Shown here piece by piece: positions 1 to 21,287 of a stretch of 28,040 bases of DNA (positions are counted from its first letter, which is position 1; the number at the start of each line of letters is the position of its first letter). Origin of the DNA: a virus. Lineage: Duplodnaviria; Heunggongvirae; Uroviricota; Caudoviricetes. The stretch covers positions 1 through 28,040 of the IMG/VR virus record IMGVR_UViG_2778261689_000008; one strand, given 5' to 3'. A program made the translations under genes and the position numbers. Below the pieces are notes generated by a model. It searched no databases and was not told the origin of the DNA. It was given only the letters and a program-made list of their open reading frames with translations.

Positions 1-489
1 TCAAATCAAGCATCGCACTCTGAAGCAAGTAGCCATCTGCCTGCTTCCTTTGATCTGCGAGAAGTTTGTGGCAGTGATCACCAATCCCCCCTGTGCGCGA
101 GCAGCTTTCAGTCCAGCTTTTGTTCGTTCAACAATCAGTTCACGCTCCATTTCAGCCAGGGCACCCATCACATGAAAGAAAAAGCGTCCCATTGAGGTAC
201 TGGTATCAATTGAATCCGTCAGACTACGAAAGTTGATGCCTCGTTCGCGCAACTCCTCCACCAGCACGACAAGATGCCGCATACTGCGCCCCAGTCGGTC
301 CAGTTTCCAGACCACCAGCGTATCGCCTGCCGATAATGTCCTGAGCAGTTTTTTCAGTCCCGGCCTGTCGGACTTCGTGCCGCTGATTTTGTCCTCAAAA
401 ATCAGCTCACATCCTGCGCACTCCAGCACATTACGCTGCAATTCCGTGTTCTGGTCATTTGTTGACACGCGTACATAGCCAATAAGCAT
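1..489 (-). CDS. pin: Serine-recombinase DNA invertase (Pin/Gin/Hin family); catalytic domain intact, C-terminal DNA-binding region apparently out of frame
   Basis: Track ORF 1-534 reads MLIGYVRVSTNDQ...VVWKLDRLGRS...GALAEMEREL, the catalytic core of resolvase/invertase enzymes. Start trimmed to the ATG at 487-489 (GGGGGA 6 nt upstream). After ...KAARAQGG the frame gives an unrelated tail and stops at bases 1-3; the neighbouring frame reads IGDHCHKLLADQRKQADGYLLQ, which resembles the invertase HTH region as I recall it. Confidence 0.8.
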   Translation of the reverse strand: MLIGYVRVSTNDQNTELQRNVLECAGCELIFEDKISGTKSDRPGLKKLLRTLSAGDTLVVWKLDRLGRSMRHLVVLVEELRERGINFRSLTDSIDTSTSMGRFFFHVMGALAEMERELIVERTKAGLKAARAQGGLVITATNFSQIKGSRQMATCFRVRCLI

Positions 490-546
490 GAGCATCCCCC
501 TGAATAAAAACCGGAGATGATGCCAGTTAGCCATAATCTCTGCATT

Positions 547-570
547 TTCTTAAACGTTGGTTTGGGAGAA
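547..570. other. Invertase crossover site, left copy (imperfect palindrome ttcttaaacgttggtttgggagaa)
   Basis: Its reverse complement matches 2336-2359 at 19 of 24 positions in inverted orientation; both copies encode N-(V/L)-G-L-G-E in frame within the tail-fibre reading frames. Confidence 0.6.
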
Positions 571-915
571 GCGGCTAAAAGAAATGTAGGGACCGGCACC
601 AATCAAATTCCTGACATGTCTAGCTTTACAAGTGGAAATGGCTGGTGTCGTTACCCTGATGGAACTATCTTTCAACGTGGTGTTTCAGTGGCAGGAGCGA
701 TTGGATCTCCCACTTTTATAAATTTCCCCATTGCATTTACCAACTACTCAACCGTGCAAATTGTTGTGTCGTATGATAATGCGGAATCTTCAGTAAATTC
801 AATTCCTTCTTTTGCTGCTACACCCGTTAGTACCGGTCTTGGTTTTAGCTTAATGGGTTCCCAGCCATCAGGTAGCAATACAACTTATTGTCGATGGATA
901 GCTATAGGTAAATAA
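547..915 (+). CDS. Silent alternative tail-fibre C-terminal cassette (would be fused to the constant N-terminus after inversion)
   Basis: Track ORF 517-915 on the opposite strand to the expressed fibre; shares the GLGE junction motif at the crossover site; no convincing own start or RBS. Confidence 0.55.
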   Translation, partial: FLNVGLGEAAKRNVGTGTNQIPDMSSFTSGNGWCRYPDGTIFQRGVSVAGAIGSPTFINFPIAFTNYSTVQIVVSYDNAESSVNSIPSFAATPVSTGLGFSLMGSQPSGSNTTYCRWIAIGK

Positions 916-916
916 A

Positions 917-1360
917 ATGAAAAAATATGTGTACAGTGCAATAAATAACGCTTTCTATCCAACATCAATGAAAGAAGATTATATTTCTGGAAATTGCTGG
1001 CCTACTGATGGTGTTGAATGTGACGAAGATATATTTACAGAATATACAAAGGAACCGCCAACTGGGAAGGTCCGCATCGCTGGAAAAGATGGTTATCCGG
1101 AATGGGGTGAACTACCAGCACTAACTCATGATGAGCAGGTAGCAGCAGCAGAACGCAAGAGGCAGATTCTTATTGAACAGGCCAACTCTAACATGAACAG
1201 CAAGCAATGGCCTGGAAAAGCGGCTATTGGTCGTCTGAAAGGTGAGGAACTGGCGCAATATAATTTGTGGCTGGATTACCTGGACGCACTGGAGCTGGTT
1301 GATACCTCCAGTGTGCCAGATATTGAATGGCCTACGCCTCCGGCAGTTCAGGCCAGATGA
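917..1360 (+). CDS. Tail fibre assembly (chaperone) protein, alternative copy
   Basis: 147 aa; C-terminus LVDTSSVPDIEWPTPP parallels the C-terminus of the minus-strand Tfa (TATDTSTAPDVIWPELP); immediately follows the silent fibre cassette. Confidence 0.75.
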   Translation: MKKYVYSAINNAFYPTSMKEDYISGNCWPTDGVECDEDIFTEYTKEPPTGKVRIAGKDGYPEWGELPALTHDEQVAAAERKRQILIEQANSNMNSKQWPGKAAIGRLKGEELAQYNLWLDYLDALELVDTSSVPDIEWPTPPAVQAR

Positions 1361-1934
1361 CATCCGGCGCTGTGCTGGTATCTGTTGCCGTCACCGCGTC
1401 AATGTAATCCAGCACAGTGTTAAGTCGGGTGGTCTCTGCCTGCATCAGCTTCCGCCCGGCCTGCAATTTAAGTTGAATCAGACTAATGGAAGCCATTGCA
1501 GTATTAATCAGTGACTGACGCTGTACTTCTGCCGCGTCTACTGCGGCGCTATGCTGTGCCTCAGTATCGGTCACCCATTTCTTACCATCCCATTTATCGA
1601 ATGGCGTTAACGGGGTGATAGTGGTTGTATTTTCAGGATAATCACCCGGAGCTGTGATTTCTTTGGCGTCTCCCGTTTCGGTGTTATAGACGATTTCACC
1701 GCGATGGTCTGGCACATATTCCCATGAGTTTAAATCCATCGAACGGCAGATAGCATAACCCGCCTTATGTGTGCCAGGGGCATCTAAACAGGAATATGCA
1801 GGGATACCGACACCAATGGCAAGATATTCATTTGAAGTGGAAATATATTCCCGAGTTTCACCATCATAGTTATAGACGGTAATATTCCCCGCCTTCGTGG
1901 CAATAAGCTCGCTATTTAATACGGCGTTATCCAT
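1332..1934 (-). CDS. Tail fibre assembly (chaperone) protein, currently expressed orientation
   Basis: 200 aa directly downstream of the tail-fibre gene; conserved Tfa-type C-terminal motif; convergent 29-bp overlap with the plus-strand copy. Confidence 0.8.
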   Translation of the reverse strand: MDNAVLNSELIATKAGNITVYNYDGETREYISTSNEYLAIGVGIPAYSCLDAPGTHKAGYAICRSMDLNSWEYVPDHRGEIVYNTETGDAKEITAPGDYPENTTTITPLTPFDKWDGKKWVTDTEAQHSAAVDAAEVQRQSLINTAMASISLIQLKLQAGRKLMQAETTRLNTVLDYIDAVTATDTSTAPDVIWPELPEA

Positions 1935-2638
1935 TATGCAGCCCTCACGATAAAGTTAAATGCAATATTTCGTGGACGGGTTTCACTCCCGCCATATGAT
2001 GATGTAAATCCCGAATATGCCCGGTGTCCCGCATCCGTCGTATTAGCCCAGGAAGGACCGCTAGAAGTATAGATGGCCCCATTGTAATCATGGCCGTGTG
2101 CCTCAATGCTCCCGTCCTGAGCAGACAGGAGAGTCCGTCCTGAATCAATTCCTCTTCCATCATCCCACCCACGAATGAATTCGCCGCGTAAATCTGGCAA
2201 TTTATTTGTCGGATAAACTTTTGCCAGTTCCGGATACTCTTCGGCAGAAAAAGCTGCACCGTTGCATTTCAGCCAGCCTGTTGGCGGTGTGACTGAAGGC
2301 CACGGAACAGGCACACCTACGGGTAATGCAGAGCCTTCTCCCAAACCAAGGTTTTCGAGAGCCGTTTGCACAGTGCCATCCGATTTGATATCGCCAAACG
2401 GATTCTTGCGGCTTAACAGCAGCGCGCGAAGTGCGGTAAGCAACTGATCGTGCCGCCCCTTCTCCAGGCTGGCACCGGATGCCTCCACCACGCTGCAAAG
2501 CTCCTCCTGCAACATGTCAAAGTAGTCATCATCCAGATCGGTGGCAGGCGTGCCAGTCTGGGGGTTACCACGGGTAAAACCGTTCTTACCCGCGCCGAAC
2601 TTATCCTTCTGCGCGGTTTTCGTGTCTATACGATGCAT
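1934..2638 (-). CDS. Tail fibre protein: constant N-terminal part (about 2348-2638) plus invertible C-terminal part (1934 to about 2347)
   Basis: 234 aa; follows the baseplate genes; glycine-rich C-terminal domain; crossover site embedded at the ENLGLGE codons. Confidence 0.75.
2336..2359. other. Invertase crossover site, right copy (ttctcccaaaccaaggttttcgag)
   Basis: Inverted partner of 547-570; lies inside the tail-fibre coding sequence at the constant/variable junction. Confidence 0.6.
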
Positions 2639-2641
2639 GGA

Positions 2642-3226
2642 TTACTCCGGATATTTAAAAATTACGTAGGTATGCGACGGGCAGAGTTTGTTAAGCACAC
2701 ACTCGACAACGGTGTCGCCCCAGATACGCAGTGCGGAATCACAGGGATCGCCACATGTCATCCAGGTGGTGTTGGTGGTGGTTGGCATGTTGACCTGCCA
2801 GTAATACCGCCATTCCGGCGCATTCACCGCGTCAGTACAGGCCGATGAGCAGGTGAACGTGCTTTTGTCGTATCGCGTGATGGTGGCGTCTGGTCTGCCC
2901 AGGGCAGCAAGCTGTGCAAGGTAAAAATCCTCATTGATGCCGCCCGCTAGGTTAACCTTCGCATCCAGCCGTTGCTGACGCTGGCGAAGGGTCTGCGTCC
3001 CTGCGGGAATACATTCATCCGGCAGGCCGCACAGACGCTCCCAGCGATTTATCAGTTCAGTGGTGGTACGCGGATCCAGCTCCCGCATCAGGGCATCCGC
3101 ACGCTGATGAACACGGGTTAATGACGGTGCCGCACCGGCAATCGCCGGATCGCTGGCTGACCATGCCGGACCGGGCGGCAACAGTGCCGATAACAGGCGG
3201 ATGTAATCATCGTTTGTCACGTCCAT
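2642..3226 (-). CDS. Mu gp48-like tail/baseplate protein (YmfQ-like)
   Basis: 194 aa between baseplate J and the tail fibre, the position and size of Mu gp48 / e14 YmfQ. Confidence 0.65.
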
Positions 3227-4275
3227 GAAATCGTCCCCAGAACCGCCAGTTCATTTTTCGCAATGGAGATATTGTCTGCCGGTGCAAGCAACTGATGGCT
3301 ATATTCCCCGTTCGCACCGGAAATCGCCTCACTGATACGCGATACCTTCAGTTCTCCCTGCGGATAACCATCACGCAGAAGAAACGAACGCAACTCCGCG
3401 GTGATGGCGGCTCGTATTTCTGGTGTGTCCGGCGTCACGCGGATATGAAAATCCACCGTATGTGCCACCGGCCTGAATACATACAAATCAGAGCCTGCCA
3501 CCGGGGCCAGTGGCACGATATGTTGTCTTGCTGCCGTTTCCGTTGATTCTTCCGGAATGGGATTAATCAGGTCACTGCTGGCAATCATCACACCGACAGT
3601 TCCCGTTCCCATCCAGTGACGGTATGTCCATGCGCGGGTAATGCCGGGCACTTCTTTAGCCCAGACGACATAGTCCCCGTCAGCCCCGCCCTGAGGCGTC
3701 CAGTAATACCGCTCAATGACGCGGGCGCGCCACGTTTCCAGCTCTTCAGTATCAAATCCGCCTGTAAGGGTGTCAGCCACACCGGAAGACGGCAGACCAT
3801 TCACCGGCGTGACCAGGATTAATGCCGTACCGTCGTCAGCGTTACCGACCGCACCTGCACTTGAGCAGGCGATCGGCACGCGCAGGACACCACCGGAGCT
3901 GGTTGCATCGGCAGTTGCCGTGTACTGAACCAGGTCATCGCGCTGAATAACACTCCCGGCGGTCACCTTCAGGCCATCGCTGACACCTTCCCAGCGCATA
4001 TACCCGCTGGCAGCCGTGGCCCCCTTGCGCGGACACCGTTTCATCGCAGCATGTCGCGCCAGCCAGGACTCATCGCACAGGTCAGGCAGCATGTTCATTG
4101 CCAGATAATCGATGTAACCGTAAACCGTATGCAGCGCCGCCGCATACACCTTTGCCCGCACGTCTTCATCCATGCGCCGGAGCGTGTCGCTGACGTCCAG
4201 CCTGGCGAATAAATCGTTACGGAGCATACTGATATTTTCTGCCAGCGTCGGGCGCTGAAATTCACTGTCCGCCAT
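3217..4275 (-). CDS. Baseplate J-like protein (Mu gp47-like)
   Basis: 352 aa; position in the Mu-like baseplate gene order; overlapping start/stop with neighbours. Confidence 0.7.
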
Positions 4276-20430: not shown

Positions 20431-20805
20431 TTATTCCGATCGCTGGAGTTGCTCATGATGATACAGAGCGAGAATCAGGTCATAAGACCCTTGCCTGTCT
20501 TTGTAACCAGTTTTATCAACCAATTCAGCTTTACTGATTCCGGGTAAATCAAGAATCAGATTCGCAACTTCAATTGCCCTTTGGTACAACTTACCGCCCT
20601 TTTTCTCCCCATGCAGTGGTTTTACATTCTTCAGGTAACCGCTATCCGCCAGGGCGAGAAATGTTGCCCTTGGGCATATCTTCTTTCTTGACGATTCGCT
20701 TTCTGTAACCTCTGCGACAGCTGCATCCCATGCATCACGAGGAGTCATTGAGCTATCAGCCACCAAATGATAAGCGATTAAAGCAACGTGAGCGTATTGA
20801 GACAT
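20431..20805 (-). CDS. Hypothetical protein, 124 aa (moron position after the lysis cassette)
   Basis: Track ORF; no family recognised. Confidence 0.5.
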   Translation of the reverse strand: MSQYAHVALIAYHLVADSSMTPRDAWDAAVAEVTESESSRKKICPRATFLALADSGYLKNVKPLHGEKKGGKLYQRAIEVANLILDLPGISKAELVDKTGYKDRQGSYDLILALYHHEQLQRSE

Positions 20806-20843
20806 AATGCATCCATATACAAAAATCTAATGATAAGACTTTT

Positions 20844-21287
20844 CTAATATGAACACTGTGATCTCACATATTCTTGCAGGCCATTCAATTGGTTAGTTAT
20901 GGTTTCGATGCGCTCTCTGAGAACGAAATAATCCCGTTGAGCGGTGTCAGTAAGTCTGGGGCTGGAAGCATCATCCACGCCGGAGGCGGCGGTGGTTTTA
21001 TGCTTGTCCGGACAGACTGCTTTGACGTGCAGCCACTTACGACCAGCAGAAACATCAGCACGAAGACTTTCGATAGTCGCGTTAGCATCAGCAAGCTCCT
21101 TTGTGTATCTGGCGTCGAGTTCTGCTACATCATGTTGACGCTTCTGCATGTCAGCGATTGTGGATGTGGCCTTATCGCGCTGCTCTTTGTAGGTAATGGC
21201 GTTATCACGGTAATGATTAACCGCCCATGACAGGCAGACGATGATGCAGATAACCAGAGCGGAGATAATCGCGGTTACTCTGCTCAT
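20844..21287 (-). CDS. Rz: i-spanin Rz
   Basis: 147 aa; N-terminal [34 protein letters not shown] closely resembles lambda Rz; overlaps the endolysin stop. Confidence 0.85.
20897..21094 (-). CDS. Rz1: o-spanin Rz1 lipoprotein, embedded in Rz in another frame
   Basis: Lipobox LVVSGC followed by the proline-rich [25 protein letters not shown], lambda Rz1-like; entirely inside Rz. Confidence 0.8.

Follow-up and report, generated by a model that had tools for sequence, protein, structure and literature searches.

The left end of the stretch of phage DNA analysed here (the window, 28,040 nt) carries a truncated and fixed pseudogene of a pinE-type DNA invertase, beside an invertible tail-fibre segment that is itself intact and is found in both orientations in different genomes. 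We put the probability of this overall reading at about 0.86. It extends to two processes, inversion of the segment in trans and overwriting of the 5′ part of the gene, which we infer from the distribution of orientations and alleles. The last ~27 codons of pin were removed by the event that brought an autotransporter gene to the end of the prophage, and the ~70 nt left of the DNA-binding-domain region are heavily diverged and carry two or more single-base indels, of which one falls at a run of G. The enhancer-bearing 5′ part of the gene may still be functional, the invertases of foreign prophages may catalyse inversion in trans, and repeated overwriting by intact pin alleles would make the 5′ part of the pseudogene look intact.

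The prophage is e14-like, with lambdoid early genes, a contractile tail and integration at a tRNA-Thr gene, and otherwise appears to be complete. Its gene for a serine DNA invertase of the pinE type is present at the left end of the window as the 5′ three-quarters only, with the following features:

1..489, minus strand: truncated pinE-type serine DNA-invertase pseudogene (ORF and translation, RefSeq label, Pfam match to Resolvase only)
88..489, minus strand: catalytic (Resolvase) domain and helix E, open, 94-97% identity to intact pinE
86..91, minus strand: G6 homopolymer at which the frame departs from that of intact genes, shorter by one base than its counterpart in intact pinE (GGGACGA)
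17..87, minus strand: decayed remnant of the DNA-binding-domain arm and helix 1, 72% identity to pinE nt 405-472, with extra 1-nt indels
1..16, minus strand: start of non-homologous junction DNA, which continues beyond the window as an AT-rich spacer and a convergent autotransporter gene

By homology, translation starts at the ATG at 489 (MLIGYVRVS) and gives a product of 162 aa; the ATG at 534 marks only the longest possible ORF (177 aa). The called frame reads through ERTKAGLKAARAQGG into LVITATNFSQIKGSRQMATCFRVRCLI and stops at a TGA in bases 3-1 of the minus strand, and the neighbouring frame, GIGDHCHKLLADQRKQADGYLLQSAMLDL, is open at the window edge and has no stop inside the window. Both of these features, together with the C6 on the plus strand at 86-91 that the minus-strand gene reads as G6, had been described in the first-pass annotation and were confirmed in the sequence. 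Runs of at least six G or C occur four times in the 28 kb, so that the homopolymer by itself is unremarkable. It is informative because it coincides with the point at which the reading frame and the similarity to pinE both break.

In sister prophages, whose tail and head genes are ~97% identical to those of the window, pinE is intact (184 aa) and the next gene along is a GIY-YIG gene. Alignment with intact pinE gave 93.8% identity over nt 1-400 of the gene, and 97% over nt 258-400. Over nt 402-472 (window 87-17) the identity is 72% to pinE nt 405-472, colinear and with at least one further indel, at a score that was reached in none of 2000 shuffles. After nt ~472 (window ~17) there is no detectable similarity to pinE; one MAFFT alignment gave a weak similarity to the end of the gene, which by shuffling was not significant past nt ~472. 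Around the run, CAGGGACGAATTGG in intact genes corresponds to CAGGGGGGATTGG in the window, which is shorter by one base: the 7 nt GGGACGA of intact pinE are matched by 6 (GGGGGG) in the window. The extra indels downstream vary with the alignment, appearing either as one 14-nt gap or as two 1-nt gaps. The final ~83 nt of the gene (~27 codons, most of the helix-turn-helix) are missing, and unrelated AT-rich DNA stands in their place. Uniform decay in situ does not account for the sharp drop in identity at the G-run (97% to 72%), which requires either that gene conversion affected the 5′ part or that a mosaic junction of older date lies there.

The neighbouring frame descends from the DNA-binding-domain arm and helix 1 of the intact protein (IGGRRPKLTPEQWEQAGRLIAS giving IGDHCHKLLADQRKQADGYLLQ). 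The first-pass annotation had likened this frame to the helix-turn-helix region of Pin-type invertases. That resemblance holds at the DNA level (72%, 0 of 2000 shuffles) but is confined to the GGRRPK arm and helix 1; the remnant is not the recognition helix, and the frame has no HTH_7 domain. Genes of the hin, gin or cin type from Salmonella, Klebsiella, Yersinia and P1-like phages were considered as sources of the tail, and none matched better than pinE. A sensitive blastn search with the divergent tail (window 1-100) against complete E. coli genomes, phages and plasmids, together with a scan for an exact 53-nt pattern in one genome per species, turned up only 27 E. coli genomes and one contig from a chicken-gut metagenome-assembled genome, and no full-length relative. 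Descent of the tail from a distinct lineage of intact invertases is unsupported, as its only matches are these 27 genomes and the metagenome contig, all with the identical junction.

The DNA past the window edge could be read in closely related chromosomes. Window positions 1-600 are 100% identical to the chromosomes of E. coli 1409 and PSS-16, and positions 1-571 are 99.7% identical to that of E. coli F1005. PSS-16 is the genome closest to the window, with 98% identity over 95% of the first 25 kb, and is not identical to it. In the genomes that are identical over 1-600, the neighbouring frame ends two codons past the window (in LDLM and a stop); ~125 nt of very AT-rich spacer separate it from the stop codon of an autotransporter gene of 2.2 kb in convergent orientation. 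A helix-turn-helix is encoded in none of the frames beyond the window in these genomes, which disposes of the suggestion that the called C-terminus might be a genuine variant with its helix-turn-helix further downstream. The RefSeq (PGAP) label of the equivalent of 88-489, in all carriers inspected, is ‘recombinase family protein; frameshifted; incomplete; missing C-terminus’; the pseudogene status of identical DNA was thus already known.

The autotransporter gene (733 aa; L001 669-2870, just left of window base 1) lies between the attachment site and the truncated pin, with an att-like tRNA-Thr fragment at L001 ~176-222. Sister prophages with an intact pinE have a LEM-3-like GIY-YIG gene in its place. 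The set of complete E. coli genomes with the autotransporter gene coincides exactly with the 27 that have the pin junction, from which we conclude that the truncation and the autotransporter gene are one inherited block. A second cargo gene besides the autotransporter gene, iss (increased serum survival, a bor-like lipoprotein), was located by homology with PSS-16 (L011 25796-26089) at window ~20570-20860, between the terminase region and the lysis genes.

The domain content of the encoded product agrees with the DNA alignment. The Pfam Resolvase domain (PF00239) is covered from position 2 to 144 of 145 (E = 3e-50), the Ser9 nucleophile is retained in the MLIGYVRVS N-terminus, and the structure of Mu Gin (4m6f) aligns over residues 1-136 only (E = 3e-69). 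Intact PinE has HTH_7 at residues 138-180, and this Pfam domain is absent from the product of the G6 allele and from that of the G7 allele described below. The GRRPK arm is lost, the best frame reading GDHCHK, and the recognition helix (with RQKVAIIYDVGISTLYKKF) is gone. The residues of helix 1 through which Hin contacts Fis are Q151, R154 and L155 (PMC3798978); relative to Hin, two of these three are lost in the remnant. Lacking the GRRPK arm and the helix-turn-helix, the product of either frame, which has a complete catalytic domain and dimerization helix E, is predicted to be unable to bind the crossover sites, and with HTH_7 absent the truncated protein should not by itself be capable of acting as an invertase.

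Of 5426 complete E. coli genomes, 27 carry the junction, always on the chromosome and with ≥98% identity; the isolates come from several continents. The one match outside these genomes, DVIU01000229.1 (L014, 3841 bp), comes from chicken excreta and was binned as ‘Candidatus Scatousia excrementigallinarum’; it has the identical junction, including the G6, and is most likely a mis-binned E. coli contig. Variation among the truncated alleles is unevenly spread, with ~50 variable sites in nt 1-330 and essentially none from nt 331 to the junction, a pattern that points to other pin alleles having recombined repeatedly with the 5′ part. The lineage has changes of its own, namely E127K and P99S (P99 is otherwise conserved, and S is found throughout the lineage). 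The closest pairs of alleles show a high share of amino-acid changes, including two out of two between F1005 and 1409, the latter having the allele of the window. We conclude that the gene is a fixed and old pseudogene in ordinary decay.

A different view of the same alleles is that the protein, now a catalytic domain only, has been kept for a function, either by pairing through helix E with the invertases of other prophages in inactive heterodimers, which would damp or bias switching, or because its 5′ segment carries the Fis enhancer that inversion in trans would need in cis. It would account for the Resolvase domain and helix E being complete and open in 25 of the 27 carriers despite their allelic diversity, and by analogy with Hin the Pin enhancer may lie in the retained part, at about window 390-460. 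We nevertheless consider it improbable. Two carriers have deleted the 5′ half of the gene and the left crossover site. The closest alleles are rich in amino-acid changes, among them those of APEC-O117H42 (D12A and L45V), where D12A is three residues from the catalytic Ser9, and P99S is lineage-wide. The open 5′ part is, moreover, explained by repeated recombination with intact alleles. The proposal that the truncated fragment may be expressed as a decoy subunit that tunes switching, or the 5′ remnant kept as a cis enhancer, is quite improbable for us and would leave the segment an orphan switch either way. That foreign invertases keep the orphan segment with the remnant as enhancer or decoy, making this more than passive decay, is likewise unlikely.

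In the two carriers with the deletion, TUM9868 and EC06 (L021 and L022; locus 245-463), pin nt 1 to ~185 have been lost along with the left crossover site and some of the invertible segment. Of the recombinase gene a fragment of 219 nt remains, fused to a truncated tail gene, and the switch is physically destroyed.

The state of the run itself bears on whether pin could be restored by a single slip. Across the 27 carriers, the run is G6 in 23, G7 in two (1217KP and APEC-O117H42) and AG5 in two (TUM9868 and EC06). Over the 399 nt upstream, 40 sites distinguish the two G7 alleles, and each is 3-4 nt from some G6 allele; G7 has arisen twice, or has been mis-called twice in those assemblies. A recent −1 slippage at the G-run of an otherwise intact gene, reversible by a +1 slip that would make the run an on/off contingency tract, would fit the 7 nt of intact pinE against the 6 of the window, and the G7 alleles, each nearest a G6 allele, suggest recurrent changes of length. 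We regard this as very improbable, as the sequence beyond the window in identical genomes refutes it: the last ~83 nt of the gene are absent, the DNA downstream of the run has further indels and 28% divergence, and no downstream frame encodes a helix-turn-helix. The alternative tract length does not yield a functional full-length product of the kind expected of a contingency locus, the G7 product being 151 aa long and ending in LDLM without an HTH. The frameshift at the G-run that the first-pass annotation proposed is real in so far as the frame breaks there relative to pinE and G7 occurs in two of the 27 carriers, but it is not a simple shift, as the 3′ end has been replaced.

The same annotation had raised the possibility that the G6 tract is a sequencing or assembly error. 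Homopolymers are error-prone, and both G7 assemblies could be such errors, but 23 independent complete assemblies and one metagenome contig agree on the G6 and on the entire tail that follows it, and a corrected run would still leave the gene unrestored; an error in the G6 tract is hardly credible. Scarcely more tenable is the idea that a true variant invertase, with a short and novel C-terminus, still recombines DNA, say via a partner protein, for which the open reading frame speaks and nothing else: the tail is 27 aa in G6 alleles and 16 aa in G7 alleles, such that no single protein tail is conserved, its DNA is decayed pinE sequence read out of frame, and most of the arm and of the Fis-contacting residues of helix 1 are lost.

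The DNA next to the truncated gene is organized as a complete tail-fibre switch:

552..571: left crossover site (pix-like), GCTTCTCCCAAACCAACGTTT on the minus strand, a 20-nt inverted repeat with one mismatch to CCTTCTCCCAAACCAA
2335..2354: right crossover site, within the tail-fibre gene, containing CCTTCTCCCAAACCAA exactly
552..2354: invertible segment of 1803 bp, homologue of the e14 P segment, reversed in F1005 at 99.9% identity with collinear flanks
1934..2638, minus strand: tail-fibre gene in its current orientation, 234 aa, ~95 constant N-terminal codons plus variable C-terminus 1 (annotated in relatives as ‘phage tail protein’)
1332..1934, minus strand: tfaE-like tail-fibre assembly gene, partner of the expressed cassette (ORF, annotation of relatives)
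572..915, plus strand: silent alternative tail-fibre C-terminal cassette (gp53-like), which on simulated inversion gives an in-frame protein of 215 aa
917..1360, plus strand: second tail-fibre assembly gene, partner of the silent cassette (ORF, annotation of relatives)

The two 20-nt arms (552-571 and 2335-2354) are 95% complementary, as expected of the inverted crossover sites of ~26 bp in the Din family, and the repeat of the e14 P segment is CCTTCTCCCAAACCAA (PMC12529663). The arrangement is that of an e14-type switch, with the constant N-terminus outside the segment and two opposed C-terminal cassettes with their tfa genes inside it. On simulated inversion the tail-fibre ORF stays open, with 234 aa in the current orientation and 215 aa in the other, and the 215-aa ORF is annotated in F1005, where the segment is flipped. 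In PSS-16 (L011), a T-to-A change at the equivalent of window 2461 creates an internal stop in the tail-fibre gene, which RefSeq lists as a pseudogene; the window copy is open over its 234 aa.

Whilst the invertase gene is dead, the segment has continued to invert. In F1005 it is reversed and 99.9% identical to that of the window, with breakpoints inside the repeat arms and the same truncated pin alongside, which indicates that the inversion occurred after the truncation. The segment is likewise reversed in HKUOPY1, and among the 25 carriers listed the similarity to the window stops exactly at 571 in 10-11 (~40%). The first-pass annotation had suggested that loss of the invertase would lock the tail-fibre switch in its current orientation. 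The reversed segment of F1005 and the ~40% of carriers with reversed segments speak against this: genomes that share this dead gene have the segment either way round, and over evolutionary time the switch is not locked. The annotation had named the finding of both orientations in culture as evidence against a lock; they are known here between genomes, rather than in culture, and are not attributable to the truncated product. Orientation differences between more distant carriers could partly reflect whole segments imported via homologous recombination.

To the right of the segment, window 2355-3571 is only 97.0% identical to F1005 (L003), as against 99.9% within the segment. This step points to a breakpoint of homologous recombination at the right crossover site or close to it.

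The orientation polymorphism suggests that the segment is most likely flipped in trans by the invertases of other co-resident prophages, either other copies of Pin or PinQ/PinR. PinQ, PinR and PinE are each able to invert the P segment of e14, Fin is active on the Hin segment, and PinE also on the G segment of Mu and the H segment of Salmonella (PMC12529663). Of the 25 carriers listed, 18 have 2-4 pin-like places per chromosome. Among the same carriers, a single pin-like place was found by megablast in PSS-16, LR-50, 1217KP, JS01, BA92 and ECNB21-M121, and in carriers with one detectable pin-like place the switch may be static.

Deletion of pinE in K-12 locks the P segment though pinQ and pinR are present (PMC12529663). 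Trans inversion at native expression levels may thus be inefficient; alternatively, the deletion may have taken the cis enhancer in the 5′ end of the gene, in which case the lock would be expected. The Hin enhancer is situated ~100 bp from hixL, within the 5′ end of the gene (PMC3798978), and the presumed Pin enhancer may by the same reasoning fall within the DNA that is retained here (~window 390-460).

These findings have consequences for annotation and for predictions of phage biology. The gene is best annotated as a truncated pseudogene and not as a repairable frameshifted invertase, and its called C-terminal tail as out-of-frame junk. The occurrence of the segment in both orientations despite its own dead invertase fits the published cross-action of Pin-family enzymes between prophages, and orientation probably depends on which other prophages co-reside. 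Predictions of host range or phage defence should not assume a fixed orientation in this lineage.

The closest known system is the PinE/P segment of e14 in E. coli K-12, which has the same gene order (ymfQ, tail fibre, tfa, tfa′, stf′, pin). The e14 segment has 1797 bp, against 1803 bp here, the repeat core CCTTCTCCCAAACCAA is the same, and the catalytic region of pin has ~94% DNA identity to pinE alleles. Unlike its e14 counterpart, the pin gene described here lacks its last ~27 codons, the preceding DNA-binding segment has decayed and is frameshifted, and an autotransporter gene lies downstream, in a position that in e14 is occupied by mcrA.

Gin of Mu, Cin of P1 and Hin of Salmonella, which depend on Fis and an enhancer, have a homologous catalytic domain, whereas the product encoded in the window has no HTH_7. 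The likeness to Gin extends to the control of alternative tail-fibre C-termini by inversion in both systems. A different kind of broken invertase is the split cin of the P1-like phage vB_EcoM-813R1, which is likewise interrupted after the catalytic domain; there, a frameshift lies in a full-length gene, whereas here the 3′ end is physically missing. The cin-type invertase of that phage (L019 229-800) is divided into two ORFs, ‘Hin1’ and ‘Hin2’, and its translation meets stops after residue ~105. Lastly, the action of PinQ and PinR on the P segment and of Fin on the H segment provides the precedent for flipping by an enzyme encoded elsewhere (PMC12529663). In contrast to those cases, the gene in cis is dead in the prophage described here, so that action in trans, which the orientation polymorphism suggests, would be the only route by which its tail-fibre segment is inverted.
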